A DNA stretch of 64,000 bases from Squalus acanthias (taxonomy: Eukaryota). Below the pieces are notes generated by a model. That model saw nothing but the letters and a program-made list of their open reading frames with translations. It had not been told where the DNA came from and searched no databases. Every line of letters starts with the position of its first letter. Within the stretch, counting starts at the first letter, position 1. Positions 1 through 62,754 of this stretch are shown here, in pieces. The DNA lies in contig CM059441.1 in the NCBI GenBank assembly GCA_030390025.1, positions 24,800,001 to 24,864,000 of the forward strand, read 5' to 3'. The translations under genes and the position numbers were made by a program.

Positions 1-196
1 CTGCGCTGCCCGTTCAAGTTTTCGTGCATGCGCGGTGAGCGGCCTGCACGGGACCTCTAGGCTGCTGCGGGGGCCGTGTGGCCACGCAACTTAGCGGAAA
101 CATTGTTCCCCGCCCCACCTCCGCCTCTCATAACTGAGATCGAATAATGCAGCACCACTGGTCTGGGAGTCAAACCTGGGACCTTCATAGTTTATA

Positions 197-850
197 AAAT
201 AAAAACAGAAAATGCTGGAGATACTCAGCAGGTCAGGCAGCATCTGTGAAGAGAGAAACAGAGTTAACGTTTCAGGTCGATGACCTTTCGTCAAAACTGG
301 AAAAAAGCAGGAAATGGAACAGATTTTCAAGCAAGTGTAGAGGCTGGGAAAGGGGGGAGGGGATGAAAGAACTAAAGGGAAGGTCTGTGATGGGATAGAA
401 GGCGGGAGAGGTTAAGAGACATTAAGAGATGTTCAAGGCAAAAGGAGATGGTAATGGGACAGGTTAAGAAACAAAGGATGGCTCTAGATGAAGTGTAAAT
501 TGCGCTGGTGAAGAACACCTCGAGTCTCTTCACCGGGAGCAAGTGGAAGCCAAGCGCAAACAGTGGAAGGAGCGCACGTCAACCCAAGCACCCCACCCAC
601 CCGCCCCTTCAACCACCGTCTGCCCCACCTGTGACAGAGACTGCAGGTCCCGCTTCGGACTCATCAGTCACCTGAGAACTCATTTTTAATGTGGAAGCAA
701 GTCATCCTCGGTTCCGAGGGATTGCCTCAGAAGAAGAGAAGAGAAGAAGAAATTGCGCTGGCAGAATGAAAGACAGCTGCCATGTGGGAGAGAAGAACAG
801 AAGGCACAAACAAAAAGTGTGGATATTTGGCTCCGCGACATGTATTGGGC
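197..850 (-). mobile_element. Penelope-like pLTR fragment, interrupted by an RTE insertion
   Basis: Reverse complement of the pLTR at 18787-19130; hammerhead core mutated (TTGACGA). Confidence 0.8.
509..749 (+). mobile_element. RTE-clade LINE 3' fragment
   Basis: C..C.R.C.S..GL.SH.RTH zinc-finger end, GAA-type tail, 12-bp TSD aaattgcgctgg (497-508 and 750-761). Confidence 0.75.
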
Positions 851-1234
851 AAATTCGCCAAGTCGCGAAGTGGAGCCTTGCACCCTCATTTCCCTCCCTA
901 AACCTCTCCGGCTCTCTGCCTCTCTCTCTCCTCCTTAAAGGCGCTCCTTAAAACCGACCTCTTTGGCCAAGCTGTCCTATATCTCCTTCTGTGGCTCGGT
1001 GTGTGTTTGATAATCGCCCCTGTGAAGCGCCTTGGGACCTGTTAAAGGCGCTGTATAAATACAAGTTGTTGCTGTTGTATCCGGATACCCGAGGGTGTTA
1101 ATTATCCCCAACAATCAATTAATTATCCAACAGGACGTTTCATCCAAAGACAAATCTGGTCCTTTACTGCCTCCCAGTGGCAAGAGAAGTGAACAGGCAG
1201 AAGAGCAGGGAGCTGTCTGCAGCAGCGATTAGGC

Positions 1235-1730
1235 ATTCTACAGCCCTCTGGACTCAACATAGAGTTCAACAATTTCAGATCATAACCTCGGCCCCTATCA
1301 CACATATATATATATTTTATCCACACTTTTTGTTTGGCCTTTTTTTCTTCCCTCCCACATGGCAGCTGTTCATTCTGCCAGCGCAATTCACACTTCATCT
1401 GGAGCCATCCTTTGTTCCTTAACCTGTCACATTACCACCTCCTCTTGTCTTGAATATCTCTTAATGTCTCTCAATGTCTCTCAATCTCTCCTGCTTTCTA
1501 TCCTGTCACTGACCTTCCCTTTTGTTCTTTCATCCCCTCCCCCATTTCCCAGCCCCTAAACCTGCTTTAAAATCTATTCCATTTCCTGCTTTTTTCCAGT
1601 TCCGACGAAGGGTTTCGACCTGAAACGTTAACTCTGTTTCTCTCTCCACGGATGCTGCCTGGCCTGCTGAGTTTTTCCAGCGTTTTCTGTTGTTATTTCG
1701 GATTTCCAGCATCCACAGTATTTTGCTATT
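1235..1730 (+). mobile_element. Penelope-like 3' fragment (ORF end plus pLTR)
   Basis: LQPSGLNIEFNNFRS* followed by pLTR sequence. Confidence 0.8.
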
Positions 1731-1954
1731 GTAATAGTTTCTCTCTGTCTACCCAATCTGCGTAACATTTTAAACAACTCGATCGGATCACCCCTCAATC
1801 TCCTACACTCGATGTCGGGGGGATTACGGGTCAGATTTCATCAGCCTGACACTACTCCTTGTCTAGGCTCGCACATGCTCACTTGCTGAGAAACCGGAGG
1901 GTAACTCAAGAATAAAAACAGAAAAATGCTGGAAACACTCAGCGTCTGTGGAAG

Positions 1955-2385
1955 GAAGAAGACTTGCATTTATATCGCGCCTTTCACATTTCTAAAGTAC
2001 TTTTGAAGTGGAGTCACTGTTGTAATGTGGGAAACACGGCAGCCAATTTGTGCACAGCAAGCTCCCACAAACAGCAATGTGCTAATGACCAGATAATCTG
2101 TTTTTGTGATGTGGATTGAGGGATAAATATTGGCCAGGACACCAGGGATAACTCCCCTGCTCTACTTCGAAACAGTGCCATGGGATCTTTAATGTCCACC
2201 TGAGAGAGCAGACGGGGCCTCGGTTTAAAGTCTCATCCAAAAGACAGCACTTTCCGACAGTGCAGCACTCCGCTGGAGTGGAGTGTCAGCCTGGAATTTT
2301 TGTGTTCAAGGCTCTGAAGCAGGATATGAACCCACAACCTTCTGACTCAAAGGCAAGAGGGCTACTGACTGAGCCAGAGCTGGAG
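1955..2385 (-). mobile_element. Deu-SINE copy
   Basis: Same family as 19803-20280. Confidence 0.8.
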
Positions 2386-3432
2386 GTAGGAACAGAGGTA
2401 ACGTTTCAGGTTGATGACCTTTTGTCAGAACTGGAACGAGGCAGAAGGGATAAACGCAAATCCCGTCGGAGAGAAGAGCAGAACATCTTCAGGGTGGGTG
2501 TTCCTGGAAGAGAAGTGGCGGTGAACTAGACACTAAAACAAAGGCAAAATTCTGCGTATGCCGAAAATCAGTCTGTTTCTCTCTCCACGGATGCTGCCTG
2601 ACCTGCCGAGTGTTTCCAGCATTTTCCGGTTTTCATTTCCGATTTCCAGCATCCTCAGTATTTTGCTTTTGTTTTATTGGGATTTGCGGAGCTGTCCTCC
2701 GGCAGGGGATGATCACCTTCAGAAGCTGCGGAGAGGAAACGGGGGGGGAATCAAACTGATTACAGCATTATATAAAAACAAAACCCCAATCTTATTTGAA
2801 GGCCTCAGTCTGAGATCTGATAACGAGCTCAGATATGTCTCTTCCTACTCCCACTCGCCACCCCCGTTCTCAATTCTGCTGAGCGTCTCAGGATTGATTC
2901 AGTCCTCGCTTCATTGTCAATCCATTTGTGCCTCGCTTCAATGTTGTCAAATTTCATCCAGCTTCCGAGCAAAATTAAAAGCCCGAGTGATTACATTACA
3001 CAGTGCTTCAATCTAGTTATAGAATTACATTTCATTATTGGTGCACCTCCATCTGTGTTTTACATTAACCAAGGTGCTCGGTAATAGAATTAACTGATTC
3101 CCTGCAGATTGTGTCGGTCTGCTCACATCCTCTCTCCACTTGCCCACAGCGTTTTCAACTGAAATGAGCGTTGGTCTCAGCTGAAGGGTCACGAAACTCG
3201 AGTCGACTTTAATTTGGTTTCCTCTTTGGTTCAACACACTCCAAAAGAAAGAAAGACTTGCATTTCTATAGCGCCTTTCACGCTCTCACTTGAAGGAATA
3301 AGAACATAAGAATTAGGAGCAGGAGCAGGCCATTCAGCCCTTCGAGCCTGCTCCGCCATTCAATAAGATCATGGCTGATCTTCTACCTCATCTCCACTTT
3401 GCTGCACTATCCCCATATCCCTTGATTCTCTC

Positions 3433-4206
3433 AGGGCGCGAAATTCGGTTACGCCCCGTTTGCGGGTGGTAACCGAGTTAAGGCCGGACACTTAGCGCCC
3501 GGCGTGGAAGTACTGCCCCGGCCGCTAAATTCGGCTTATCACCCCGCACAGGAAGTGAAGCGCACTTCCTGGTGGGGCGGTAACTGAGGCGATGCCGGGG
3601 CGCGCTCCGTGGAAGCTCCACGGAGCGCTGCCGCGTTTCAACACCCCTCCCCTTCTGTTAAAGGGGAGGGCCGCTGCGCACTCTGCAGGGCCTCCGATGG
3701 CCCCGACTCAGCCACCAGGGCGGTGTGGTGCCGCGGCAGCAGCCCGGAGCCAAGACGCGGTGCCGGGCTGCGCGATGGTGGCCAGGACCACGCCACAGCC
3801 CACCACAGAGGGCTCGACCTGGAGGTCGGCCAAAAAGAGAAAATGGTGACGCGGGTCGCGGCCGCACCTCCCCTTTAAATACCGCCCCGAGAGCGGAGGT
3901 TGGCCCGGCTCGCGACCCGCGAGGCTGGCGCTGACATCGCCCATGGCAACCTCGCGGGGTGCAGCCAAATTAATTCACGGGGCGGTAAGGGGTTGCAGCG
4001 CACAGCGGTGACATCATTGGCGGTGGCACGGCAGCCTGGGGCGCTACCGGCGGGGCGTGGCACTATCGGGTAGCGCCTCAGCAACACCCTACCGAATTTC
4101 TCGTGAGGTGCTTTTTCCGTCACCCCCAACAATAAGCATTTTGCGACCCGTTAGCGCCCCCTGGAGACGGTAACAACAGGCGCAAAGGAGCCGAATTTCT
4201 AGCCCT
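3433..4206. mobile_element. GC-rich non-autonomous DNA transposon (Harbinger-like MITE) in a CR1 tail
   Basis: TIRs agggcgcgaaattcgg / ccgaatttctagccct. Confidence 0.7.
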
Positions 4207-4472
4207 TCATCTCCAAAAATCTATCGATCTCAACCTCTAAATATCGGGTGTTACAATAGCGTCCCAGTGGGCTTTCCCCCACCTGTCTATCTCAGAGACC
4301 CTGAAGCCAATTGTGCTATCCCTACTGCTGCCTCAGCACAGACTAAGCATTGAATCTTGGACCAACTGGACTGTCTGGCTCCAGGTGGGGCATTTACGCA
4401 CTCAGGCGTGCAGGATACCGCAGCAATGAAACCCGGCAACTTGTTTTAAGTGTTTTGTTTTGATTCCAACAG

Positions 4473-4681
4473 GTCAATGGTAAGGAGATTTCTACAGGCG
4501 TGAAAGATGAGATGATAGAAATATTCCAGGGTGAAGAGGAACAGGTTATCGTACAGGTGCTGCGGAAAAATGCGTGCACCAGACACGCCCCGAGGGTAGA
4601 TGTTGGTACACAGACAGATCTGGCCGATAGTTGCACAGATGTAGAGTACCCAGCCTTTCACTCCACTGCAGTCTCAGACAG
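4473..4681 (+). CDS. PDZRN3/PDZRN4-family gene, internal exon (C-terminal half of the first PDZ domain)
   Basis: AG/GT-bounded 209-nt exon reading VNGKEIST...IVQVLRK...VDVGTQTD, resembling PDZRN3 VNGRDLS...IVVQVLRR...VDTGTQTD. Confidence 0.85.
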
Positions 4682-4699
4682 GTATGTATAGCACAGAGG

Positions 4700-4826
4700 A
4701 TAAATACTGCGGATGCTGGAAATCTGAAATAAAAACAGAAAATGCTGGAAATACTCAGCAGGTCAGGCAGCATCTGTGGAGAGAGAAACAGAGTTAACGT
4801 TTCAGGTCTCTGACCTTTCATCAGAA
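4700..4826 (-). mobile_element. Penelope-like terminal fragment with an intact hammerhead core
   Basis: Minus strand CTGATGAAAGGTCAGAGACCTGAAACGTTAAC followed by the pLTR end. Confidence 0.75.
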
Positions 4827-5139
4827 TTTATCCTTATATAGCTCGGTGTCAAATTTTTTGTCTTATAATACTCCTGTACAGTCCCTTGGGACGTTTTACT
4901 ACGTTAAAGGTGCTATATAAACACAAGTTGTTAGTGTTGTTGGAAAGCCTATTGCGCTAAGATACAAGGAAGTTCGATTATTAACCCTTAACTCCCCAAG
5001 ATGTGTAACATATAACTCCCCAAGATGTCCGACAGTCACTAGCCTGTGCTCTCAGACAGCACAGCTGCCAAGGCTGGAGATTTCATCAAGAAGGATGAGG
5101 AAAAAAAGCTGATGCCTGTTTTTATTATACCTTGGACAG

Positions 5140-5242
5140 GTGTTTCCTGCACAGACCTGCACCTGATCGTCACTACAACGCTACCGAATACCTTCCCCGC
5201 ACCTCTCATGAGATGGAAAGTGAATGCAACCCAGTGTATGAG
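5140..5242 (+). CDS. PDZRN-family gene, inter-PDZ linker exon
   Basis: cag|G...GAG|gtaact; phase fits the previous exon; reads CFLHRPAPDRHYNATEYLPRTSHEMESECNPVYE, resembling the YD..EY...E(Y)E linker of PDZRN4/PDZD4. Confidence 0.7.
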
Positions 5243-5711
5243 GTAACTCGCAACTGCATAACTATCCCGAGCCATCGCCTTCAGGGAGATGTCGGCAGTG
5301 AGATTAATGCGCAGAATTAAAACAAGTGCCAGCCAATGTTCCCCGTGAGCGGCGCTGTGTTCTGCGCGGCCTGTTTCTTTAAATGCGCGGTCCCTTTAAA
5401 TTTCTGCGCTTGCCCGGTGTTTACAATGGGAAAGCCGGTGAGCGGCCTGTGCGGGACCTTGCAGATTACTGCACGGCTGCGCGCTCAGCTTAGCAGGAAC
5501 GTTGGTGCCAGTTAACACTGCCGCCTTCCCTTCCAGCACCACGAGTGGACAAGGGAATCGTGGGGGAGATGATGAGATTTTTTTTTTTACGCAGCGAGTT
5601 GTTGTGATCTGGAATGCGCTGCCTGAAAGGGCGGTGGAGGCAGATTCAACAGTGACTTTCAAAAGGGAATTGGATAAATACTTGTAAAAGAAAGATTTTA
5701 CAGGGCTATGA

Positions 5712-6108
5712 AAAAAGACTTGCATTTCGACAGCACCTTTCATGACCTCCGGATGTCCCAAAGCACTTTACGGCCAATTAAGTACTTTTTGAAGTGTAGT
5801 CACTGTTGTAATGTGGGAAATGCGGCAGCCAATCTGCGCTCAGCAAGCTCCCACAAACAGCAATGTGATAATGACCAGATAATCTGTTTTTTAGTGATGT
5901 TGATTGAGTGATAAATATTGGCCAGGACACCAGGGAGACTCCCCTGCTCTTCTTCGAAATAGTGCCATGGGATCTTTTACGTCCACCTGAGAGAGCAGAC
6001 GGGGCCTCAGTTTAACGTCTCATCCGAAAGACGGCACCTCCGACAGTGCGGCACTCCCTCAGTGCAGCACTGGAGTGTCAGACTAGATTTTTGTGCTCAA
6101 GTCTCTTG
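5712..6108 (-). mobile_element. Deu-SINE copy nested in a CR1 fragment
   Basis: Same family; CR1 sequence resumes after 6108. Confidence 0.8.
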
Positions 6109-6788
6109 AGAAAGAGCAGTGGAGTGGGACTAATTGGAGAGCTCTTTGAAAGAGCCGGCACAGGCACGATGGGCTGAAAGGCCTCATTCTGTGCTGTATG
6201 ATTCTATGGCAAAGCCAAGTTGTAGTGCTCTGCTTGCATCACCCTCTAATCATTGGATTAATCGTCTCCCTTTATATATAAATTATATCATTACTGTAAA
6301 TAGGAAATGATTCATTTTTAATTTCGTGTTTCTTCCTGCTGATTTAATCCCCTCCCGAAGACGGTGACTATTTACTGGGGCACAGATTCAAAGCTGGTAG
6401 GTGCCTCTCAGCGCCTCAGCCGAGTGGTCTTAGCAGTGAGTGTCAGCCAGCTATTCAGCTGCAGGGATTATCACAACCAAGCCTGACCTGGTCCTCACCC
6501 AACAGCCACAAACATGCACTTCCAGCAGGGTCCCTGGATACAGGAGCCCCGGCTGATTTTTTTCCCCCCTCACTAACCCTGGTTGAGATCAGTGAACTCA
6601 GTACAGACCAGGGCTGGAACCTGAGGTCCTCCTGGTCCGGACATCTCAGCTACTCATTGGATAATCTTACTGAGCAAGACCTCAATTTCTGATCTCAATA
6701 TAATGGAATTAGTTAACAATTTATATTCCACCATGATTACACAAAATTGAACAAACTAGTGAAAGTGTTTTTGGACAATACCTATTCC

Positions 6789-7479
6789 AGGGTTGCCAAC
6801 TCTCCAGGATTGCCCTGGAGTCCCCAGGAAAGAAAGACTTGCATACTTACATTTATATAGCACCTTTCACAACCACTGGACATCGCAAAGTGCATTACAG
6901 CCAATTAAGTACTTTTTGAAATGCAGTCACTGTTGTAATGTAGCAGCCAAATTTGCACACAGCAAGCTCCCACAAACAGCAATGTGATAATGACCAGATA
7001 ATCTGTTTTAGTGATGTCGATTGAGGGATAAATATTGGCCCAGGACACCGGGGATAACTCCCTTGCTCTTCTTCGAAATAGTGCCACGGGATCTTTTATG
7101 TCCACCGGAGAGAGCAGACGGGGCCTCGGTTTAACGTCGCATCCGAAAGACGGCACCTCCGACACTGCAGCACCCCCTCAGTACTGCACTGGAGTGGGAC
7201 TTGAACCCACAAACTTTCTGACTCAGAGGCAAGTGTGCTACCCACTGAGCCACAGCTGACACTGAAATAAAGGTTTATCTCCAGGGCACCGCCGCCAGCA
7301 AAGACCCAGGAGAAAGATCATTAAATTAATTATGTGATTTCTCTCAGTTTATTTGAACACTTTTCATTAAATTATGGGAGTTGGGGGGGGGAAAGGCTGT
7401 TCGACCGGGTGGGGTGGTTGGAGGCGGGAAGTCATGTGATGAAACCTCCAGGAATACGCCCAACTAGAGTTGGCAACCC
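6789..7479. mobile_element. hAT-like MITE interrupted by a SINE
   Basis: TIRs gggttgccaactct / agagttggcaaccc. Confidence 0.65.
6828..7263 (-). mobile_element. Deu-SINE copy nested in a MITE
   Basis: Same family. Confidence 0.8.
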
Positions 7480-7793
7480 AAATCCATTGGGAAGAGGATT
7501 CTCATCCAGCCCAGTCTGGTGAGCTAAAAGACCCCTCTACCTTACTCAACCAATGAGTCCTAAATGCTATTCGATGTGACTGTCTCAAGCCAGTCTCCAG
7601 TAGCCAAATGCCCAGCAAACTTACAGTTGGTATCAGTGAGCTTAAGAACATAAGAAATAGGAGCAGGAGTCGGCCATGTTGCCCCCTGCGCCTGCTCCAC
7701 GAAAGTGCAGAAAAGCTTCAATTTCGAACAAACGTTCCACCTGCTGACACCAGTCCGACATATTCTAATCTGCTTTACCTTCTTTCTTAAAAG

Positions 7794-7895
7794 GAGATGG
7801 AGGTGTTCAAACTGAAATACTATCAGGAGATGAGCCTGGGCTTAAGTAGCTGCTACACCATCAATGAAGAACAGCCAAGTATCTCTCTCAATAAA
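7794..7895 (+). CDS. PDZRN-family gene, exon for the start of the second PDZ domain (divergent)
   Basis: Polypyrimidine tract then aag|GAG...AAA|gtaagt, 102 nt; reads EMEVFKLKYYQEMSLGLSSCYTINEEQPSISLNK vs PDZRN3 [33 protein letters not shown]. Confidence 0.75.
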
Positions 7896-8147
7896 GTAAG
7901 TGGTTATTATCAACCAGCTTTATACAGACAGATCTACGAACTTCTCCATGTGTGTGGCTTCCCCCAAGAGTCATTGAAAGGGGGACACAGTTTGTGCGGA
8001 TACACCTTTGCATGTACATATTGTAGGAATATGTGTTGATATTTGTGGCCAAGAGGTTAGATGTAAAGTCTGCTTCTGGGCTACCATGATTGTCTCCTCT
8101 ATCAGCGGCCATCAGGATTGTCAAGGCAGAGCTTTCCCCTCTATTTT

Positions 8148-8785
8148 CAACAACATTAACTTGTATTTCTACAGCGCCTTTAACGTAGTAAAACGTCCAA
8201 AGGCGCTTCACTGGAGCGATTATCAAACACAATTTGACACCGAGCCACATAAGGAGCTATTAGGACAGATGACCAAAAGCTTGGTCAAAGAGGTAGGTTT
8301 TAAGGAGCGTCTTAAAGGAGGAGAGAGAGGTAGACAGGCGGAGAGGTTTAGGGAGGGAATTCCAGTGCTTAGGGCCTTGGCAGCTGAAGGCACGGCCACC
8401 AGTGGTGGAGCGATTAAAATCGAGGCTGCTCAAAAGGCCAGAATTGGAGGAGCGCAGATATCTCGGAGGGTTGTAGGGCTGGAGGAGATTAGATAAGGAG
8501 GGGCAAGGCCATGAAGGAATTTGGATACAAGGATGAGAATTTTAAATTTGAGGTGTTGCCGGACCGGGAGCCAATGTAGGTCAGCGAGCACAGGGGGTGA
8601 TGGGTGAATGGGACTTGGTGTGAGTTAGGATACGGGGCAGCAGAGTTTTGGATGACCTTAAGTTCATGGAGGTTGAAGATTGGAGGCCAGCCAGGAGAGC
8701 GTTGGAATAGTCAAGTCTAGAGGTTAACAAAGGCATGGATGAGGGTTTCAGCAGCAGATGAGCTGAGGCAGGGGCGGAGTCGGAC
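8148..8785 (-). mobile_element. L2-type LINE 3' fragment (related copies at ~860-1078 +, 14112-14505 +, 36560-36872 -, 38965-39465 +)
   Basis: RLDYSN, HSPITP..L, AFSC.GP.LWNSLP, FK..LKT.LF motifs; tail ggcgctatataaatgcaagttgttg. Confidence 0.75.
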
Positions 8786-9345
8786 TCTCCCTCTCACATT
8801 GATAGCAGGTGCTGCAACCTTTGATCAGCACCTCACTGTTCAATGTGGCTCTAATTGAGCAGAATAAGACCTAAACCTACAATCATCCCAAACACCGAGC
8901 ATTACTTCCACCTAGATTATGTTTTAAGGAGCACTGGGGAGGTAGAACATCCTTAAGGTTCATGTAGATCCTCCAAGATTCACAGGAAATTATGGCGTAA
9001 AAACGGGAGCATTTTCCGGCGTAATTTCGACGTAAATCGGATTGAGGAAATTCTGGCCCTAACTCTTCAAGGAAAGTGATCAGTCCCTGGAATGGTCAGC
9101 CGGGTAGTGTCGTGGAGGCAAACACAGGAGTCATTCAACAAGTCTTTAGATGCTGCGATGAGGGAGGGTATCTGTCCCGTCCAGCTCATCTTTCTATAGA
9201 AACCTATGACCTTCCTCCCTTATCTTGGTGATCTTCCTACGATGCCAACACTTCAACAAAACTTTACTCGGCCTGCGCTGAATTTTGATGAGCACCAGCT
9301 AGTGTTATCAGTTGGAATCGTGCCACAACTCTGCAACCTGGATCT

Positions 9346-9517
9346 CTCTCTCTCTCTCTCTCTTAGGCAGTCCCTCGGAACCGAGGATGACTTGCTTCCA
9401 CATTAAAAATGAGTTCTCAGGTGGCTGATGAGTCCTGACATTCCAGGTCCCGAACTTCATTTTAAAGGGTGGAAGTTGCCTGTGCGTGAATTCACACACC
9501 AGCTACCACACAGGCTT
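9346..9517 (-). mobile_element. Short bipartite non-autonomous RTE element
   Basis: RTE N-terminus MKFGTWNVRT joined directly to the RTE 3' end and a (GA)n tail; TSD acctggatct. Confidence 0.7.
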
Positions 9518-10329
9518 GACCTGGATCTACCCAAATGGACAAGATGAAAGTTTCCTCTCAACCCGCTGTAAAGTTCAAATGTGAAATGAGATTGAGGCAG
9601 TGCCGATCCAGTTCTTGTGAGAATGAACACAGGAGGTCACAGGGTAGATGTGGATCGGGGAAGGTCTTTCAGACTGTCCGACCCCTGTCTGTCCACAGAG
9701 ACAGGCCCAGATTTTCCGGGGCCTGTGACTGCGTACGCAGCCTTTAGTGCCCCGTAAGTTCCGGGTTTCCGCATGCGCCACGCATGCGCAAAAACCCAGC
9801 ACTTGCGATCTGTCAAGTTTCAGCTCAGCAGATCCACCGCATCCCTGGGAAACGGACATTCGCGGGCGGAGAGTCGGGCTATTTGCCCGGCGGATGCCCC
9901 AATTAATTTTGACCATGTAATGATTTATTTTTATTTAACTGGTGTGTAATTGTGTTTTTTAGGGATTCCTATTCCTGTTTATGGAGATTCCGTACGTAAA
10001 TGGATTCCCCATAAGCATGATGGGGATCCCCCTTTCTCATTGGTTGGGCCGGCCCACGTGATCCCAGGGACGCTGGCGAACCGCCTGCGCCCCTGGGATA
10101 GGTGGGCCTTTACGCAGGCGTACGCGTAGGGGCCCATGAGCGCGAGTGTCCGAACCTCCGGGACCGTCAGGTAGGTTCGCACTTTCCTTGCGGTTCGGAG
10201 GCCTCCGCCCGCGGGAAACCTCCAACCACAATGTCAGGCCCGTCGTGACTCAGTGGTCTAGTGCGTTGGTCAGACCCCGTCTGGGGCGCTTCCTTCAGTT
10301 TTGAGCACGGCATCTCAGCAAAGATAGAT

Positions 10330-10625
10330 TGGCCTTGAAGAGAGTGTAGCGCAGATTCATCAGAACAACACCGGGGCTAAAAGGGTTAAGTTATGAGGAC
10401 CGGTTGCATAAACTTGGCTTGTATTCCCTCGCGTGTAGAAGATTAAGAGATGATCTGATTGAGTTGCTTAAAATGTTAAAAGGATTCGACAGAGTCGATT
10501 CAGAGAAACTATTTCCTCTGGTGGGGGATTCAAGAACAAGAGGACATAAAATTAGAGCCAGGCCATTTAGGAGGGAAATTAGGAAGCACTTTTTCACACA
10601 AACGGTAGTAGAAATCTGGAATTAA
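10330..10625 (+). mobile_element. CR1 fragment
   Basis: RRLRDDLIE...TRGH...FFTQ.VVEIWN. Confidence 0.75.
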
Positions 10626-10860
10626 GCCCAATAAATTTTAAAAGGAAGAAAGAAAATAGTATCATGGGATCTTTTACATCCATCTGAGAGGGCAGATGGG
10701 GCCTCAGTTGACTGCCTCATTCGAAAGACGGCCTCTCTCTCATTTCTGCACTGGGAATGTCAACCTGGATTTTGTGCTCCAAGTCTCTGGAGCGAGGAGA
10801 CTTGAACCCACAACTTTCCTGACGTGGAAGGCGAGAGTGCTGCCACTGAGCCACAGCTGA

Positions 10861-11560
10861 ACATACGAACATACGCATTAGGAGCAGGAGTCGGCCACTC
10901 GGCCCCTCGAGCCCGCTCCACCATTCAATAAGATCATGGCTGATCCGATTACTCCACATTCCCGCCTACCCCCGATAACTTTTCACCCCCTTGCTTATCA
11001 AGAATCTATCTACCTCTGCCTTAAAAATATTCAAGGACTCTGCTTCCACCGCCCTCTGAGGAAGAGAGTTCAAAGACTCACGACCCTCTGTGAGAAAACA
11101 TTTCTCCTCCTCTCTGTCTTAAATGGGCGACCCCTTATTTTTAAACAGTGACCCCTAGTTCTAGATTCTCCCACAAGAGGAAACATCCTCTCCACATCCA
11201 CCCTGTCCAGACCCCTCAGGATCTTATATGTTTCAATCAAGTCACCTCTTACTCTTCTAAACTTCAGCGGATACAAGCTTAGCCTGTCCAACCTTTCCTC
11301 ATAAGACAACCCGCCCATTCCAGGTATTAGTCTAGTAAACCTTCTCTGAACTGCTTCCAACGCATTTACATCCTTCCTTAAATAAGGAGACCAATACTGT
11401 ACACAGTACTCCAGATGTGGTCTCACCTATGCCCTGTATAACTGAAGCATAACCTCCCTACTTTTGTATTCAATTCCCCTCGCAATAAACGATAACATTC
11501 TATTAGCTTTCCTAATTACTTGCTGTACCTGCATACTAACCTTTTGCGATTCATGCACTA
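10861..11560 (-). mobile_element. CR1 LINE 3' fragment
   Basis: RPHLEYCVQYWSP...FSQRVV ORF and CR1 3'UTR. Confidence 0.9.
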
Positions 11561-11607
11561 GCTGACACCAGTTATACTGTTGTTATCTTTGATTTCTTGT
11601 ATTTTAG

Positions 11608-12952
11608 ACAGATGATGACAGCAAGGCAAACAGAGATACCACGCCGGAGCCATCCAGACTCCAAGACCGAGACAGCGGACTGGGACATGTGGACGGGAGC
11701 ACGCAGAACGACGCGGCTTCCGAGCAGGAGACCGAGGAGGACGGCTGGTGGGGGCTGGGCAGCCGCAGAGACATGCTCACAGGCGATGAGCTCCCTCTCA
11801 GAGATTCTATTACCTCAGACGAATGTAGCGACTGGGGCTTTTACAGCATCAGCCCCGGAGAGTATGAGAGGTTTCAGAAGGTTCTGGAAAGGAAGTGTCG
11901 ACAGTACACGAGCAGAAGCAAGTCTGAGTTGGGCGGAGAGGCACCAACAGAGGAGGAGACTAAGAGCGGCCGGAACAACAATCCCACAAATGAGCTTGAT
12001 AGATCACAGGAGGGCCGTGAAAATGGTGCAGGGGAACACACTGATTTGACAGAAAGACCTCCAGTTATGGACCAGCCCAAAAGCCTTCAAACTTGTTCTA
12101 CCAGCAACAGTTGCTACCACTGGGAGACATCATCATCGGCAAACAGATCAAGGAGCTTCCAACAAAACAATAGCGTTATTCCCCCTCAAAAATTGTCCCA
12201 ACAAAGATCAGCCGTCTTTACCTGCTCGAAATTCTGGCGCACCCAACAGAGAAGCCACCTGTGCCCTTATGGGGGAGAACATTGAGGGGAAGAAAGAGGA
12301 GGAAAAGAAAACTGGACAGGAATCGCCATCAGCCAGAAGATATAACCATGAGTCTGACTCACAGACGTCAAGTCGGGGATCCATCCACATACCACAACAT
12401 GCACGGCACTATCAGAGCTACATGCAGCTGGTGCAACAGAAAGCTGCAGTCCAGTGCAGCGAGAGCCTCTCAGATGCCGGCGAAGGCGATGGAGAAATGC
12501 CTCGCTCAATGTCAAGGTTGGAAGACGACCGAACCTGCTTCACCGCCGAGAAACAGCGGAGAGACCGGCTCCTCAAAGACCGCGCGGTGAAGATCAGAGA
12601 GGAGCGCAACGGCACGACCACCGATGACGACAGCTTGAGTGAGATAAAGGTGGGAAGGTATTGGAGCAAAGTGGAGAGGCGCCAGCACTGGATGCTGGCG
12701 AAAGAGAAGAGGCAGAGGAGAGCGGCGATGATGCAAAGCAGGCTGGAGATGGTGAAGGAAAGCGCGCAGGCGGTGGACAGCGGGAGAGCGGAAACCAACA
12801 TTATTGAACTGAGCCAGAGGAAAGTGAGCAGAAAAAGAAACAAGAAGGTTTTTGACAACTGGGTGACCATTCAGGAACTGTTGGCACATGGCTCACGATC
12901 TGCTGATGGCACAGTGGTTTACAGTCCCTTGCTCTCTGTCACTACTGTATAG
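11608..12952 (+). CDS. PDZRN-family gene, last coding exon (frameshift between ~12050 and 12283)
   Basis: Acceptor ttttag|ACA; DRDSGLG..DGSTQND..SEQE motif in frame 1; IPQHARHYQSYMQLVQQK, RDRLLKDRA, TTDDD..SEIKVGRYWSK, FDNWVTIQELLAHG and the terminal LLSVTTV* in frame 2, diagnostic of PDZRN3/4/PDZD4. Confidence 0.9.
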
Positions 12953-15590: not shown

Positions 15591-15597
15591 CTCAAAA

Positions 15598-18500
15598 GGC
15601 AGCTGTTGATGATTCTGCCATTGCCATTTACACCTCATCTAGAGTCATCTTTTGTTTCTTAACTTGTCCCATTACCATCCCCTTTTGCCCTGTACCATTG
15701 TCCCTTTTGTCTTTTAATCTCTCTTGCCTTCCAGCCTATCACAGACCTTCCCTTTTGTTCTTTCCTCCCCTCATCCCTGTCCCTACCCCTACACTTGCTT
15801 AAAAATCTGTTACATCTCTAACTTTTTCCAGTTCTGACAAAGGGTCATCGACCTAAAACGTTAACTCTGTTTCTCTCTCTACAGATGCTGCCTGACCTGC
15901 TGAGTGTTTCCAGCATTTTCTGTTTTTATTTCAGATTTCCAGCATCTGCAGTATTTTGCTTTTGTATTAGTGTTTAATTCACTGTCACTTCTCTTCTAGG
16001 AATGCCCACCTTGAAGAAGTTCTGCTCTTCTCTCCGACGGAATTTCCGTTTGTCTCTTTTAGTTTGTTCATCGTCATTGCTTTCTGTTTCCCTTCTCGTG
16101 TTTGATCAGGTATCTACCAAAACTCGCTTCCACAGCCACAACTCTTTCCTCAGCAACTGTCTCTGACTCCGACTTATTCCACATGGATTCCAACTGAAAT
16201 TCCACCCTTCATGTTTTGGATCCACCCAGGATTACAGATATCTCAGAGATATTCAGCGTTCCTGAAACCACTGCTCTTGCCGTATCCTGAGATCCACGCT
16301 CAACGCCATGCGCTGCCACATGCACACTCTCGACCTCTCTCTTCAGCAGCACCGACTCACTCTATCTCAAAGCTGTCCTGGTCCGCAGTTCCATTTCACC
16401 CTTCGCCTCATCCGCCGCTTTAACAAAAACTTTTTTTCTTCCTTTCAGGTATCAAGAATCGTAAGCTTCAACAACTCTTGGACACCAACGCCCCTCCTTC
16501 TTCCCCTTCACTTTCCTCTGACCCCATCCCTTCTTCCAATCTCACCCCGTCGTGTTTTCACTATCCCCTCTGACCTTCCCCTCTCTGACCCCGAACGATC
16601 AGTCCTCAGCAAAGGCCTGAGCTTCATCCTCTTACGCCCCCACCTCAATGAATTTCGAGCTCGGCACGATGCTGAGCTCTTCTTCCATCGCCATCGTCTC
16701 CGTGCCCACTTCTTTGGCCAGGAGTTTTCCCCCCGCACAGCTGACCCTTTCTCCCGTTTTCAGAATTCTCGCTACCTGGACCCCTCCCTCTGGCCTCTTA
16801 ACCTCTCTAGATCTTTTCATTGCAAACTGCCGGCGTGACATCGGCCATCTCAATTTCTCTGCTCCCCTCACTCACTCCAACCTACCTCCCTCTGAACTTG
16901 CAGCACTCCATTTTCTCAGATCCAACCCCAACATTGTCATTAAACCTGCTGACAAGGGTGGCGCTGTTGTTGTTTGGTGAACTGACCTCTACCTAGCGGA
17001 GGCTGAACGCCAACTCTCTGACACCTCCTCCTACCTCCCCCTGGACCATGACCCCACTACCGAACATCAAGCCACCGTTTCCAAGACCATCACTGACCTC
17101 ATCTCCTCTGGTGATCGTCCCTCCACGGCCACCAATCTCATAGTTCCCCAACCCCGCACAGCCCACTTCTACCTCCTTCCCAAGATCCACAAACAGGACT
17201 GCCCTGGTAGATCCATTGTTTCAGCCTGTTCTTGCCCCATGGATCTCATCTCTTCCTATCGCGACTCTATTTTTTCTCCCCTTGTCCAGTCTCTTCCCAC
17301 CTATATCCGCGACTCTTCCGACGCCCTCCGCCACTTTAACAGTTTCCAGTTTCCTGGCCCCAACCATCTCCTTTTCACTATGGACACCCAATCCCTCTAC
17401 ACCTCCATCCCCCACTAGGATGGCCTGAAGGCGCTCCGCTTCTTCCTTGAACAGAGGCCCAACCAGTCCCCTTCCACCACCACCCTCCTCTGCCTGGCTG
17501 AACTTGTTCTCACATTGAACAACTTCTCCTTTGACTCCACTCACTTTCTGCAAATTAAAGGTGTTGCTATGGGAACCCGCATGGGTCCTAGCTATGCCTG
17601 CCTTTTTGTGAGATATGTGGAACATTCTTTGTTCCAGTCCTACTCGGGTCCCCTCCCTGACCTCTTTTTCTGATACATTGATGACTGTATCAGTGCCGTT
17701 TCCTGCTCTTGCCCTGAACTCGAAAATTTCATTCACTTTGCTTCCAATTTTCACCCCTCCCTTACCTTCACATGGTCCATCTCCGACTCTTCCCTTCCAT
17801 TCCTCGACTTCTCTTGTCTCCATTTCTGGGGATAGGCTATTGACAAACATTCACCAGAAGCCCACTGACTCCCACAGCTACCTGGACTACACTTCCTCTC
17901 ACCCCGCTTCCTGTAAGGACTCTATTCCATTCTCCCAGTTTCTCCGTCTCCGCCGCATCTGCTCTGACGATGCCACCTTCCATACTAGTGCTTCTGATAT
18001 GTCTTCCTTTTTCCTCAACCAAGGATTCCCCTCTACTGTGGTTGACACGGCCCTTGACCGTGTCCATTCTATTTCCCGCACTTCTGCTCTCACCCCTTCC
18101 CCTCCCTCCCAGAACCACAATAGGGTTCCCCTTGTCCTCACATTTCACCCCACCGGCCTCCACATTCAATGGATCATCCTCCGCCATTTCCGCCACCTCC
18201 AGCGTGATCCCACCACCAAACATATCTTCCCCTCCCCTTTCAGCATTCCGAAGGAAACGTTCCCTCCGAGACACCCTGGTCCACTCCTCTATCACCCCCA
18301 ACACTCCTTCCCACAGCACCTTCCCGTGCAAACACACAAGATGCAACACCTGCCCTTTTACCTCCTCCCTTCCCACTGTCCAAGGCCCCAAACACTCTTT
18401 CCAGGTGAAACAGCGATTTACTTGTACTTCTTGCAATTTAGTATACTGTATTCGCTGCTCACGATGCAGGTCTCCTCTACATTGGGGAGACTAAACGCAG

Positions 18501-19130
18501 ATTGGGTGACCGCTTTGCAGAACACCTCCATTCAGTCCGTAAGGGGGACCCCGAGCTTCCAGTCACCTGTCACTTTAATTCTCCGCTCCACTCCCACTCA
18601 GACCTCTCTGTCCTCGGCCTCTTACACTGTTCCAACGAAGCTCAACGTAAACTCGAGGGACAGCACCTCATCTTTCGATTAGGCACTTTACAGCCTTCTG
18701 GACTCAACATCAAGTTCAACAATTTCAGACCATAACCTCTGCCGCTATCATTTTTTTCTTTTTACTTTTCTTTTTTTCTCTCACATGGCAGCTGTTGATG
18801 ATTCTACCATTGCCATTTACACTTCATCTAGAGTCATCTTTTGTTTCTTTACTTGTCCCATTACCATCTCCTTTTGTCTTTTAATCTCTCCTGCCTTCCA
18901 TCCTATCAGACACCTTCCCTTTTGCTCTTTCCTCCCCTCCCCCTTTTCCCTGCCCCTACACTTGCTTAAAAACCTGTTACATCTCCAACTTTTTCCAGTT
19001 CTGACGAAGGGTCATCAACCTGAAACGTTAACTCTGTTTTCCTCTCCACAGATGCTGCCTGACCTGCTGAGTGTTTCCAGCATTTTCTGTTTTTATTTCA
19101 GATTTCCAGCATCTACAGTATTTTGCTTTT
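15598..19130 (+). mobile_element. Full-length Penelope-like element with direct pLTRs; decayed RT and GIY-YIG ORF
   Basis: Repeats 15598-15965 and 18787-19130; PLE RT motifs (IKPADKGGAVV, LPKIHK, GVAMGTRMGP, YIDD, KPTDSHSYL), GIY-YIG-like NLVYCIRCSRC/GDRFAEH; several stops and frameshifts; flanking duplication tgactcaaaagg. Confidence 0.92.
18997..19034 (+). ncRNA. Minimal type I hammerhead ribozyme motif in the Penelope pLTR
   Basis: AGTT-CTGACGA-stem II-GAAACGTT-AACT; conserved core with palindromic AACGTT in place of helix III. Confidence 0.7.
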
Positions 19131-19450: not shown

Positions 19451-19792
19451 TCATTTCGTACTTGACATACATAAAAATATTGTTCCTAAAACTATACCCA
19501 ACCCTCCTCCTATTGCCAAGCCGGTGACGATCACTCGAACGGCCATGTTAGTACTTTTAAAGAGAGCCTTTATTTTTTCCCAGAATGATTTAGCCTTCTT
19601 CTTCTTCACTGGATTTCCTTCGAGGATATCTATCTCCTCCTTCTGCTCCGGTGACAGGACTTTGTAATAGTTCAGTTGCACCAAGTCCTCGGGAATCACT
19701 CTGACCGCAATAAGTACTCGCTTGACAACTTGCATTGTTTTTGAGTTTTGTACTTGGCACATGTACGTCCCAGCATTCTTCTCTTCAATATC
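19451..19792 (-). CDS. TMEM81: TMEM81 coding exon 2 (end of Ig domain, transmembrane helix, stop)
   Basis: Acceptor aataaag|GAT; DIEEKNAGTYMCQVQ...VKR...VRVIPEDLVQLNY resembles TMEM81 DSGTYRCDVQ..VKRLYFGLRVLPPNLVNLNF; GLAIGGGLGIVLG transmembrane segment. Confidence 0.88.
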   Translation of the reverse strand, partial: DIEEKNAGTYMCQVQNSKTMQVVKRVLIAVRVIPEDLVQLNYYKVLSPEQKEEIDILEGNPVKKKKAKSFWEKIKALFKSTNMAVRVIVTGLAIGGGLGIVLGTIFLCMSSTK

Positions 19793-19802
19793 CTTTATTG
19801 GC

Positions 19803-20868: not shown

Positions 20869-20949
20869 AAGGATGGCGGGGGTGGAGGAATCATGGCTGG
20901 AGCTCTGAGATTTGCTTTGCTGGTCATGAAAATGTATCCAAAGGACGTA

Positions 20950-24945: not shown

Positions 24946-24951
24946 ATCCGC

Positions 24952-34782: not shown

Positions 34783-35244
34783 GTTTATAATCATCATCCA
34801 CGATGTTTTTGTGTCTCTTAATGGAAACATTTTGAAGAGGTATTTATCTGTGGTCACAATTCCTCTCGCAATCTTCCACACAAAGATGAAATCGGACGCC
34901 CCTAGAGTACTAATGGTCTCATCCAAGCAGCTAATGCTCAAAGTGGCGCCCACGGTGGTGGTTTTGGCGATCAGACCGCAGTCCTGGTTGACCAGACACA
35001 AGCTGTTCTTCACCACGCATTTACTCTTCTTCCCCGCTTTGTCCATTTTGCAGTAATACTCGGACCTCCAGCCCAGCCCACAGCTCTTGCTGCAGGGGTT
35101 CGCGCTCACCAGCAAGAGCCCAGTAACTGTGACCTTCTCCAAGTCAGGTGGCAGGGTGCTAAAGTCCTCTTGGCAGACGACCAGATGAAGCAGGAAAGTA
35201 AAAGAGATGAGGACAAGGTAGATACCTGCATAAGGGAGAAGCAT
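34783..35244 (-). CDS. TMEM81: TMEM81 coding exon 1 (signal peptide, cysteine-rich hinge, start of Ig domain)
   Basis: ATG at 35244, hydrophobic signal peptide, PCSKSCGLGW, CLVNQDCG, WKIARGIVTTD motifs; phase-0 donor AAC|gtgagt; adjacent to RBBP5 as on human 1q32. Confidence 0.9.
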
Positions 35245-46771: not shown

Positions 46772-46960
46772 CTGCGGGTGGCTCGGCCACTTCCGCCAGC
46801 TCCTTGCCCTTCACTGCTCCTTCCAAAGGCTGACCTCTGTCCCCTTTGAAGGTTTTCGACTTAATGAAATCTTTCTCTTTACCTTTCGTTCCTTTTGGCC
46901 GGCCCGCTTGCTTTTTCTTCGACTTGCCATCGCCCTTCACACCCAGCAATGGGTGAACTT
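46772..46960 (-). CDS. RBBP5: RBBP5 exon (VHPLLGVKGDGKSKKKQAGRPKG...)
   Basis: AG/GT-bounded 189 nt; matches the RBBP5 C-terminal basic region. Confidence 0.92.
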
Positions 46961-48332
46961 CTGCAGGAGAAAATAAATGTGGCGGTTACTGTCATGGAGG
47001 AACCTTTTTTTTTTTGCATTACGGGTTCTGGCCCAGCAAGAAACAGAAAAGGTTTGAAAGGGGCCTGGTGGAGAAACAAAAGTCAGTGACCTCAGGACGT
47101 CCAAAAGTGCCTTACAACTAAAAAAAAACCTCTCGCCTTGCTAAGGTAGTTAGTTAACAGTACAGTATAAAAATCACTAATCACATGGCTCTCCCCTCAC
47201 CCCCAGCAGATTGTATTGCACCCTTCACCACGCCATGAAAGGCAAGTTAAAAAATTGTTCAAGAGTCTTTAATATTGGAGTTAAAAAGCCTTCTAGTGCA
47301 CTTCAATCAATAATATATTTTTGTAGTCTAATGAGTTTAAGTGCCTATAAAGAGGCGGCTTTGTGGCAGCCAGAAATGGGTCGGTGGGTCAGCCCTAATA
47401 CTAGGCCCAAAGCCTGACCCCACAGGGAGACTGTTGAGGGAGACCATTCAAACAGAGGAAATACATGCAAGTTATAAGACTTCTAATATATTACACACAC
47501 ACACACACACACAGGAAGGAGGCCATTCGGCCCATCATGCCAGCTCTTTGAAAGAGCTGTCTAATTAGTCCCACTCCCCACAGCCCGGCAATTTCTTTCC
47601 TTTTCAAGTATATATCCAATTCCCTTTTGAAAATGATTTATTATAAACTAAATTACGATTGAATCTGCTTCCACCACCCTTTCAGGCAGTACGTATAACA
47701 TTAAAAAAAAAACCAAAGAGCTCTGCTTAAAAGCTCAGTCTGTTAATGTACTGCCCAATGTGGCACTGAACTGTACAAATAAAGTCCCAGGTCAATCCCT
47801 GGTCTCTGTTAAATTAGCTCTGCAATTGTAGGACTACAATTGGCATCAACACCTCGGAACCCTTGGATGAGGGTGGAGCGGTGAGACTCAGTCAGCTTCC
47901 CACTGGTGATCACTAACCAGTGACTCCTGCGGGAATTGCGCCCGAATTGAGAAAGCCAAGGTAGGGAGTGTATCGGGTTTAGTCACGACGCCCTCCACAG
48001 GTGAACATCCTGCTGGCGCGCGCCCATTAATAGCTACTTGGATGAGGTACCGGAGCAGGGCTGGCATCCATGGAAACACACTCCAGTAGGAGTCAGTGCC
48101 TTCAGGAGAGGGAAGGGAAAACAAACTTGCATTTCTATAGCGCTTTTTACATCCTCCGGACATCCCAATGCGCCTCACAGCCAATAAATTACTTTTGAAG
48201 TGTCGTCACCGATTATGAGGTCAACAAAAAGAGAAGATATTTGGTGCAGCACGGGGAAAGCAGAGAGATATCAATATAAAAAGCAAAATGCTTGAGATAA
48301 CTGGTCTGCTGAGTAACAAGTAAACCAATTAC

Positions 48333-61548: not shown

Positions 61549-62028
61549 AAATAGCCAAAATAACCCCACATTAAATGGCCAGAATCCCCCACCCTCAAAT
61601 GTAAAATTTAACCAAGGAGTACGGGATAGTGCGGGAAGGTGGAGAGGAGGTAGAAGATTATTGAATGGCAGAGCAGGCTCGAAGGGCCTACTCCTGTTCC
61701 TATTTCTTATGTTCTTACATAAATAAAGTCAAGTTAGAAAGATTTGAGGGACAATTTCTGGACACTAAGGGAATCAAGGGATATGGGGATATGGCAGAAA
61801 AGTGGCGTTGAAATAAAAGATCAGCCATGATCTATTGAATGGCAGAGCAGGCTAGAGGGGTCATATGGCCTACGCCTGCTCCTATTTCTTATGCTCTTAA
61901 GTGTGGGAGAGCCTATAGGGTTACTCATCTGGAATCAGAAGAGGATGTTCTGGCAGCAACTCAGTAATTTGAAGCCTGCAAGCGATTAAGATGGCGACAA
62001 AACTAATCAGCCACAAATGGTCACTTAC

Positions 62029-62182
62029 CGCTACATCCAGCAATAGCTCTCCCCGTGTGCCGTGCAGAATCTTCACCAGGTTCCCTATGCTCTTCTCCCA
62101 GATGTAAAGTGCATGTTGCCGTGCTGAACCAGCACAGATGTACTCCCCATCACCAGAGAAACAACACTTCTTCCAGGGGGTC
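62029..62182 (-). CDS. RBBP5: RBBP5 exon ([14 protein letters not shown]...LLLDVA)
   Basis: AG/GT-bounded 154 nt; WD40 repeat. Confidence 0.95.
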
Positions 62183-62754
62183 CTGAGAGGGAGATAAACA
62201 ACCAGGTCATTTATATAAAAGAAACCACCTCAACACAAAAATGGAAAGAACCACTTTAGCTGTCATTCTGGTGTACACGTCCTATACGTTAAAGACAAAA
62301 ACCTGCAGGAAGTTGCAGATTATACATCAACGTTGATTGTACCTTGTGATTTCTATACGCAAAAAGATTCAACTCACTGAAGAAAGAGGATCTCGGGATA
62401 TTTTTTCCCCATAATTAAACAACCATTAGCAAAACAAGCAGCTTTGAAAGGTGGCATATCTGACAATAATAGCAAGTCATTAGAGAAAAACAAGCATTCT
62501 TCCATTTATCATTAAGATGAACTTCACGATCAAGTAAATCAACCAAATTAAAACGAATGAATCTGAAGGTCTGGCACCCTCAGACATTCGAGTCAGTCTC
62601 CTCAGCCCCAGCATTGTTAAAGTGGTCAGGTCTAAAAAAACACACCGCTGATGAACCGGTTAATGGCACTGCTGTGTCTATACCAAAGGTAGGGTTATTA
62701 CATTGCTATGCAATCGGCTGTTTAGAAACTGTATCTCCAGTTATCTAGTATTAC

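Follow-up and report, generated by a model that had tools for sequence, protein, structure and literature searches.

A probable fourth vertebrate paralogue of PDZRN3, PDZRN4 and PDZD4, reduced and patchily kept, in the shark Squalus acanthias

Introduction

Is a PDZRN-type gene that lies beside RBBP5 in a shark one of the three known vertebrate genes PDZRN3, PDZRN4 and PDZD4 (LNX3, LNX4 and LNX5), or is it a fourth? The question is raised by a 64,000-nucleotide stretch of Squalus acanthias DNA (GenBank assembly GCA_030390025.1, contig CM059441.1, positions 24,800,001 to 24,864,000), hereafter the window, in which the gene occupies 4473-12952 on the + strand. An earlier reading made from the letters alone, which we call the sequence-only reading, had proposed a fourth ohnologue of the family, i.e., a copy dating from the two rounds of early vertebrate genome duplication (2R). 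We conclude with good confidence that the gene is a fourth vertebrate LNX3/4/5 paralogue, and very probably a 2R ohnologue: The proposal is upheld by a separate clade with both chondrichthyan and bony members and by neighbours that fit the fourth 2R block.

Vertebrate duplications have been described as giving rise to LNX3, LNX4 and LNX5, with forms lacking RING and PDZ domains noted for invertebrates only (PMC3162930), and the same three vertebrate genes are given in PMC7765395 and 10.64898/2026.10.09.757662.

Results

Six-frame translation and tblastn of the window revealed a real gene with four coding exons (A to D; Table 1) that join in phase (2, 0, 0) with no stop at the junctions. All four exons have AG acceptors, preceded by 12-15 pyrimidines per 18 bases, and the first three have GT donors. 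Exon A begins where PDZD4 and the short PDZRN3/4 isoforms also begin, a point that corresponds to the C-terminal half of PDZ1: In the orthologue from Heptranchias perlo, residues 22-55 match only residues 68-101 of the PDZRN3 PDZ1 structure 1uhp. Exon D carries, in order, the DSG block, the SD..ERFQ block, a shortened linker devoid of coiled-coil and SSAYNT motif, the HIP-HY-SYM block and the LNX3H core. In the alignment, the core keeps T, T and S at the positions equivalent to PDZRN3 T955/T956/S962 (codons 12617-12622 and 12638-12640).

In the main tree, the window gene fell into a clade of its own. This tree comprised 35 rows (34 named proteins and the window model) and 648 columns under LG+C20 with posterior mean site frequencies (PMSF); rows were restricted to named proteins, leaving out 16 representatives with mammal-like best matches, rows below 300 amino acids and entries after P0399. 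All 10 rows of the new clade grouped at 100/100. Support was likewise 100/100 for PDZRN4 and for PDZD4, which includes the ray Narcine; PDZRN3, with Callorhinchus among its rows, had 78/71, and the grouping of PDZRN3 with PDZD4 had 79/86. The amphioxus, hemichordate and crinoid outgroups split from all vertebrate rows at 100/100. Each of the four clades contains chondrichthyan as well as bony-vertebrate rows, which places the duplication before the chondrichthyan/osteichthyan split. Within the new clade, the branching of chondrichthyans, tetrapods, bichirs, paddlefish and teleosts follows the species tree. The teleosts form two subclades (Salmo/Anarrhichthys/Zoarces and Electrophorus/Knipowitschia), each with a percomorph, a pattern that suggests that both copies from the teleost genome duplication may have been kept.

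The sequence-only reading had named a phylogeny as the way to check that the gene stands outside the PDZRN3, PDZRN4 and PDZD4 clades, and approximately unbiased (AU) tests bear this out alongside the 100/100 clade. Upon forcing the shark copies into the chondrichthyan PDZRN4, PDZRN3 or PDZD4, at a cost of 65-105 log-likelihood units, the nesting was rejected under two models with AU p from 1.5e-4 down to 1e-62. The alignment for these tests had 34 rows trimmed to 333 columns, with the Albula PDZRN4 and the out-of-frame Polyodon tail removed. Identity to the chondrichthyan members of the three known clades was 42-50% on trimmed columns. The stem of the new clade has a length of 0.79, and the new clade and PDZD4 are both long branches. 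In four-clade runs under C20 with the outgroups removed, the arrangement new+PDZRN4 | PDZRN3+PDZD4 came first in 4/4, by 0.3-1.4 units, which is not significant; we take (new,PDZRN4),(PDZRN3,PDZD4) to be the pairing expected of a 2R ohnologue. The corresponding LG+G4 runs narrowly rejected new+PDZRN3 (p 0.04 and 0.05).

The neighbourhood points in the same direction. As the sequence-only reading had it, the divergent PDZRN-type gene on the + strand is convergent with RBBP5 and a TMEM81-like gene on the - strand, and coding exons of all three were located. Matches to Protein Data Bank (PDB) chains confirm two exons, at 46776-46961 and 62026-62190, as RBBP5, and the name TMEM81 remains a lead for the gene at 19451-35244, which ends ~6.5 kb from the PDZRN-type gene. 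These neighbours fit the one block of the paralogon that has no known PDZRN gene. For human 1q32, we assume the order and strands CNTN2(+)-TMEM81(-)-RBBP5(-). The gene pairings given in the sequence-only reading fit published positions: PDZRN4 is close to CNTN1 (PMC4383869), the neighbour of CNTN3 is PDZRN3 (PMC10350496) and TMEM81/RBBP5 are located at 1q32.1 (PMC8784893). PDZD4 appears together with L1CAM in the accessible Xq28 literature. The paralogon itself has been mapped to human 1, 3, 7/12 and X and to chicken 26, 12 and 1, with NFASC/CNTN2 at 1.7/1.8 Mb on chicken 26, CHL1/CNTN3 at 17.8/17.5 on chicken 12, NRCAM/CNTN1 at 30.4/30.6 on chicken 1, L1CAM on X and CNTN2/NFASC on human 1; PDZRN genes are missing from the accessible tables of that paper (PMC3826523).

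A second lineage offers a view of the upstream side. The Polypterus model KAG2467573.1 begins with laminin domains and continues as the clade gene from about residue 1045, a fusion that implies LAMB3 upstream on the same strand. If LAMB3 lies beside CAMK1G at 1q32, as we presume, the Polypterus arrangement supports a 1q32-type block, though not the CNTN2 slot. CAMK1G is itself a gene of this block, and in stickleback only 0.1 Mb separates it from CNTN2 (PMC3826523). Contig sizes, 10.4 Mb for the ostrich gene and 19-25 Mb for those of sea turtles, are compatible with a microchromosome.

The clade is reduced in its domains. None of 12 members gave a RING or PDZ match in Pfam, with PDZD4, amphioxus and hemichordate controls positive, and the Pfam scan of the PDZRN exons in the window likewise found neither domain. 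The RING/TRAF-type zinc-finger exons that had been expected upstream are accordingly unlikely, as 0/12 members have a RING, a TRAF finger or a complete PDZ. In the window, six-frame hidden Markov model (HMM) searches detected no RING, TRAF, N-half PDZ1 or rest-of-PDZ2 exons; the remaining PDZ2 exons had no match among its 3039 six-frame segments, and the acidic exon was absent too. At 1-4472, no first coding exon of RING, TRAF, N-half PDZ1 or MGC type was found. The only ATG-GT mini-exon candidate there (3943-3984) showed no similarity to relatives and was rejected, and a stretch at 8060-8130 resembling a stopped PDZ2 exon was recovered by neither tblastn nor HMM and was treated as intron.

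A motif census over 23 clade rows, close relatives and partial models included, found the SSAYNT motif in 0/23 and the tryptophan beta-hairpin in 0/23, vs 26/27 for each among PDZRN3/4/PDZD4 rows. The PDZ2 core (GDRI) occurred in 0/23 and a GRYW-type motif in 23/23, and 22 of the 23 end in VTTV. The coiled-coil pattern was narrow (0/7 even in PDZD4), so that the loss of this element rests on an alignment gap. The C-terminal LNX3H region (~150 amino acids) is homologous to that of the family, with its N-terminal hairpin part degenerate. From these sequence comparisons, the clade is a reduced member, by descent, of the LNX3/4/5 (LNX3H-domain) family. Its proteins start just before the equivalent of exon A, with a short MIF start in tetrapods and MGC in ray-finned fishes; a half-PDZ1 start is also found in the PDZRN3/4 short isoforms, in PDZD4 and in lamprey and hagfish genes. 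Shark, newt, turtle and ostrich proteins all pass straight from exon C into the terminal exon, so this junction is ancient.

Between the window and Heptranchias, identity rose from 62% in the linker (97/157) to 82% in the LNX3H core and 94% in the last 51 amino acids (48/51; Fisher p 3e-6), which shows purifying selection on the tail until recently. For the last 189 amino acids, AlphaFold predicted helices with low confidence (mean pLDDT 68, pTM 0.26) and no strand at the hairpin site, a weak indication given pLDDT below 50 there. An Atlas search with the Heptranchias terminal region yielded only chance-level matches (0.76; TM <0.25).

Relatives of the gene are spread widely but thinly. With the last 221 amino acids as query, 1434 proteins matched, and among the best 120 of these the top match was Heptranchias perlo XP_067863882.1 (658 amino acids, 75%, no Pfam domain), the other 119 being PDZRN3/PDZRN4-type proteins at 49-57% identity and E about 1e-57. 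The best 120 of 205 matches to the last 51 amino acids added P0121, a 433-amino-acid open frame closest to the Heptranchias protein. A clade profile run against all 50% representatives gave 430 matches, of which the best 150 were examined, and was the best scorer for 49 of the 473 collected proteins (P0413 marginal). Members include the tetrapods Pelodiscus, Caretta, Chelonia, Chrysemys, Platysternon, Lepidochelys, Natator, Eretmochelys, Alligator, Struthio and Pleurodeles, and the ray-finned fishes Erpetoichthys, Polypterus, Polyodon, Megalops, salmonids, Electrophorus, Knipowitschia, Anarrhichthys, Cebidichthys and Zoarces. The gene had been read as one retained in a cartilaginous fish; the shark copies agree with this, but it is not confined there. 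No mammalian member was named among the best 150 of the 430 profile matches, nor any from frogs, squamates, coelacanth, lungfish or gar, a weak negative, since a 50% cluster could hide one. The absence from mammals proposed in the sequence-only reading draws on the literature and on these weak searches. A profile search of the 90% database returned 8 matches from 8000 candidates and missed members of the profile itself, and was not used to argue absence. Among the matches listed, a named PDZRN4 occurs in at least 16 chondrichthyan species and a named clade member in 1. Four species combine a clade member with another paralogue: Polyodon, Megalops cyprinoides and Salmo salar with PDZRN3, and Zoarces with a PDZD4-like gene.

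Database entries of the clade are uneven in name and quality. NCBI labels its members 'PDZRN4-like', 'PDZRN3-like', 'PDZD4-like' or uncharacterised, and the Platysternon member TFK00402.1 (P0487) is named 'zinc finger protein 469', an apparent misannotation. P0121 and P0468 are 433-amino-acid open frames, 96% alike, on a long branch that joins the shark copies; they imply that the terminal exon is intact in a third lineage of chondrichthyan-like type. The Polyodon models P0377/P0474/P0475 go out of frame near the tail, Eretmochelys is split into pieces of 120 and 370 amino acids (P0472+P0486), and the bird-like fragments P0470 and P0473 suddenly cease to resemble the ostrich protein; recurrent decay or faulty models are possible causes.

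The window copy itself contains a lesion. Exon D measures 1345 bases, one above a multiple of three, and in tblastn the frame relative to the Heptranchias orthologue switches at 12173-12183, where a run of five C has one base too many. As assembled and read from exon A, the product is 363 amino acids long and ends at a premature stop (12283-12285) ahead of the LNX3H region and VTTV; an X placed at the break gives a 585-amino-acid model with no further stop. The claim that the gene keeps its C-terminal VTTV thus holds for the codons, which are present, but with the extra C at 12181-12185 they stand in another frame than the upstream exons. Among 17 GT and 19 AG sites, no candidate pair of adequate strength was found for a cryptic intron skipping the frameshift, and no protein identical to the product of the window was among the matches listed for the last-221-amino-acid and last-51-amino-acid searches.

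We consider a recent, real null allele slightly likelier than an assembly error. An extra C introduced in the homopolymer during assembly, with the gene intact in the sampled animal, would come a little short of even odds: The lesion is the only one in 585 codons and the C5 run adjoins an A5 run, the 255 codons past it are open with the LNX3H blocks 82-94% conserved and no rate acceleration (27:20 derived changes for the window vs Heptranchias in a relative-rate comparison, p 0.38), and the Heptranchias model as well as P0121/P0468 are open across this point. Against such an error, a retroelement frame of 1335 amino acids (~4 kb) in the same window is unbroken, so the local rate of indel errors is not very high; broken or split models recur elsewhere in the clade (the Polyodon tail, Eretmochelys, the bird-like P0470/P0473), and the window copy is altered at 4 listed columns that are conserved in 88-100% of other rows.

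Discussion

The findings would be best explained by an origin before the shark/bony-vertebrate split, most likely in 2R, on the block represented by human 1q32, chicken 26 and gar LG3. The ancestral copy would have been reduced early from a RING-less short isoform, losing most of PDZ2, the coiled-coil, SSAYNT and the tryptophan beta-hairpin and retaining the phosphosite region, the LNX3H helices and SVTTV, and the gene, presumably dispensable, would then have been kept patchily.

Several observations weigh against an ohnologue on this block. With outgroups, the trees accepted every sister that was tried, i.e., PDZRN4 (AU p 0.34/0.38), PDZD4 (0.52/0.32), PDZRN3 (0.12/0.20) and a position basal to all vertebrate rows (0.75/0.85); the four-clade analysis under LG+G4 placed new+PDZD4 first in 2/2 runs; and the diagnostic columns split 2:2:0. 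Of upstream neighbours, LAMB3 alone has been observed, in Polypterus; CNTN2 has not. In Zoarces viviparus, moreover, the clade member VZT92_025402 (P0465) lies ten locus tags from the PDZD4-like VZT92_025412 (P0213) on a 31.0-Mb contig.

These data leave some room for a small-scale duplicate that arose before the gnathostomes, for example from the PDZD4 or PDZRN4 lineage, and moved to a 1q32-type block, which would make the gene an old paralogue and not an ohnologue. We regard this as improbable. The pairing with PDZD4 was never rejected and no single sister was singled out, the extreme C-terminus scores best against PDZD4 proteins, the RING-less half-PDZ1 start is common to the clade and PDZD4, and the two Zoarces genes lie close together. 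However, the gene appears to sit, in two distant lineages (the window and Polypterus), on the sole block without a known PDZRN gene; the clade and PDZD4 are both long branches, and the PDZRN3/4 short isoforms and the lamprey and hagfish genes start alike. Teleost blocks corresponding to human 1, 3 and X are documented as intermingled (PMC3826523), which explains the shared Zoarces chromosome but not the closeness of the two genes.

A further rival holds that the whole clade is decaying into pseudogenes and has no present function. Its long branches, the loss of motifs needed in the worm orthologue, the several broken models and the patchy spread, with 1 chondrichthyan species vs at least 16 for PDZRN4 among the matches listed, would fit such decay, which we nonetheless consider quite unlikely, because frames remain open to VTTV in 22/23 rows from shark to teleost, newt, turtle and ostrich, the regional conservation is significant (Fisher test above) and both teleost duplicates are kept. 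That the shark merely has a divergent orthologue of PDZRN4, PDZRN3 or PDZD4 here would agree with the NCBI names and with the three known paralogues not having been seen in its genome or in Heptranchias, but is highly improbable given the AU rejections, the low identity to all three chondrichthyan clades and the four species that carry a clade member plus another paralogue.

What might a fourth, reduced paralogue do? In Wnt5a-Ror signalling, Pdzrn3 is phosphorylated at T955, T956 and S962 and then degraded, and the RING-less Lnx5 escapes degradation after Wnt5a (10.1101/2020.06.22.163790). In the worm, the RING-less PZLS-1 needs the three phosphosite residues for its activity and the tryptophan hairpin for localisation, its SSAYNT limits abundance, and its SVTTV is partly needed; the vertebrate PDZRN3 tail is cited in the same work as binding the PDZ domain of DVL3 (10.64898/2026.10.09.757662). 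By analogy, the clade protein could be a stable, non-catalytic and mostly disordered adaptor whose SVTTV would dock on PDZ domains such as that of Dishevelled; it might be phosphorylated downstream of Wnt5a-Ror but would be incapable of self-ubiquitination or self-degradation, and would buffer or compete with PDZRN3/4 in Wnt-Ror-Dishevelled signalling. We hold such a role as a non-catalytic PDZ-binding adaptor or competitor to be possible, at rather less than even chance, and a scaffold role outside Wnt may be the main alternative. Two features of the clade count against it. Since it has lost the hairpin required by the worm protein, the clade may have no part in Wnt-Ror signalling, and the phosphosite pattern matches only 16/23 rows, with teleost copies looking degenerate there: The three positions are present in the window, Heptranchias, newt, turtles, alligator and ostrich and degenerate in some ray-finned members.

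An MGC start, as in the ray-finned members, fits a lipid-anchor consensus. A more specific and doubtful picture would be a tail-only decoy of PDZRN3/4, arisen early and possibly lipid-anchored, that joins the Wnt5a phospho-switch and the PDZ-binding motif in the absence of ligase, PDZ, abundance motif and hairpin, amounts to a natural separation-of-function allele and has been lost repeatedly, with the shark caught at the moment of loss. Equally tentative is its wider form, in which an unnamed pan-gnathostome ohnologue, lost in mammals and probably in many birds and elasmobranchs, would tune Wnt-Ror-Dishevelled polarity.

The clade can be told apart from each known relative. It has the same block order as PDZRN4/LNX4 and PDZRN3/LNX3 (half PDZ1, first PDZ2 exon, large terminal exon) and has in common with them the DSG and HIP-HY-SYM blocks, the LNX3H core with the three phosphosite positions and VTTV, at about 50% identity on trimmed columns, but it lacks their RING, TRAF finger, complete PDZ, coiled-coil, SSAYNT and hairpin, has several-fold longer branches and has other neighbours. 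PDZD4/LNX5 resembles it in being RING-less and fast-evolving, in starting mid-PDZ1 and in its last residues; unlike the clade, PDZD4 keeps PDZ2, SSAYNT (7/7) and the hairpin (6/7), and forms its own 100/100 clade. The Heptranchias protein XP_067863882.1 ('PDZ domain-containing RING finger protein 4-like') is the direct orthologue, 75-80% identical over four homologous blocks and missing the same domains. It differs in a frame that is open at the frameshift of the window, in spanning sequence that is intronic in the window and in an unlike N-terminus, and may be partly mis-predicted.

Among invertebrates, C. elegans PZLS-1, Drosophila Slip1 and other LNX3H proteins without RING or PDZ indicate that the LNX3H tail works without a RING (PMC3162930; 10.64898/2026.10.09.757662), although PZLS-1 keeps and uses the SSAYNT and hairpin that the clade has lost. 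The reduction in vertebrates took place independently, given that RING and PDZ domains are present in the proteins of amphioxus and hemichordates. A family precedent for retention outside mammals is LNX2b, the third LNX1/2 paralogue, which is kept in non-mammals and lost in eutherians (PMC3162930) but, as part of the LNX1/2 branch with its four PDZ domains, lacks LNX3H.

We found no paper on a fourth LNX3H paralogue in a search that covered few subscription papers. One supplement (13,282 characters) of the ohnologue-database paper PMC13450315 matched none of six gene names, and the underlying database may bear on novelty. The clade is thus apparently undescribed as such, though its genes are already in NCBI. 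A fourth gene would complete the L1-family/contactin/PDZRN quartet on a well-studied paralogon and accounts for database entries inconsistently labelled as PDZRN3-like, PDZRN4-like, PDZD4-like or uncharacterised. One or, apparently, two copies in teleosts could confound loss-of-function work on fish pdzrn3/pdzrn4. The motif losses separate parts of the LNX3H domain that in the worm are tied to localisation, abundance and activity, so that the clade offers a direct test of how the LNX3H core acts without a RING. The surprise is limited, as ohnologues hidden by mammalian loss are a familiar class and the function proposed here is putative.

Other features of the window

Table 1. Coordinates of coding exons and motifs along the window.
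Feature	Position	Strand	Evidence
Exon A: C-terminal half of PDZ1 and TQT motif, ends in phase 2	4473..4681	+	AG/GT sites; 72% to Heptranchias, tblastn E 5e-27
Exon B: linker exon ahead of PDZ2	5140..5242	+	AG/GT sites, phase fit; tblastn E 2e-12 to Heptranchias
Exon C: relic of the first PDZ2 exon, 34 codons	7794..7895	+	AG/GT sites, phase fit; tblastn E 2e-15 to Heptranchias
Exon D: terminal coding exon, stop at 12950-12952	11608..12952	+	AG acceptor; tblastn E 5e-169 to Heptranchias
C5 run with one surplus base (+1 frameshift vs Heptranchias)	12181..12185	+	Frame change in tblastn; sequence context
LNX3H core	12560..12949	+	Alignments; 82% and 94% identity to Heptranchias in two blocks
VTTV codons (C-terminal PDZ-binding motif)	12938..12949	+	Out of frame with upstream exons as assembled
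TMEM81-like second coding exon (end of Ig domain, transmembrane helix, stop)	19451..19792	-	Weak Ig Pfam matches, E 0.006-0.03; AG acceptor, phase 0
TMEM81-like first coding exon	34783..35244	-	ATG and GT donor; Atlas TMEM81 clusters 0.78, 0.75
RBBP5 exon, PDB chain residues 466-528	46776..46961	-	PDB match, E 1.4e-21
RBBP5 exon, PDB chain residues 249-303	62026..62190	-	PDB match, E 4e-31

The lead for TMEM81 comes from the predicted anatomy of the product (signal peptide, cysteines, immunoglobulin (Ig) domain and a transmembrane-like segment) together with the two Atlas cluster scores, both below the cut-off of 0.9; a PDB search with the product found no match. The gene has two coding exons, and an intron of ~15 kb interrupts the Ig domain; mammalian TMEM81 presumably has a single coding exon. 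A young Ty3/Gypsy-type long terminal repeat (LTR) element sits in this intron at 24684-28993 (-), with LTRs 98-100% alike, a 4-bp target-site duplication and pol spread over two open reading frames (ORFs). A minisatellite with a 19-bp unit and ~21 copies occupies 29409-29810.

The retroelement frame mentioned above lies at 49946-53953 (+), inside the RBBP5 span, and encodes an intact gag-pol of 1335 amino acids (protease, reverse transcriptase (RT), RNase H and integrase); no direct repeats of at least 60 bases were found around it in 47000-57000. Between the PDZRN stop and the TMEM81-like stop, at 15591-19131 (+), are broken RT-like ORFs with a weak GIY-YIG match (E 0.029) and direct repeats of 91-93% on the flanks, an element that we take, from its look, to be of Penelope type.

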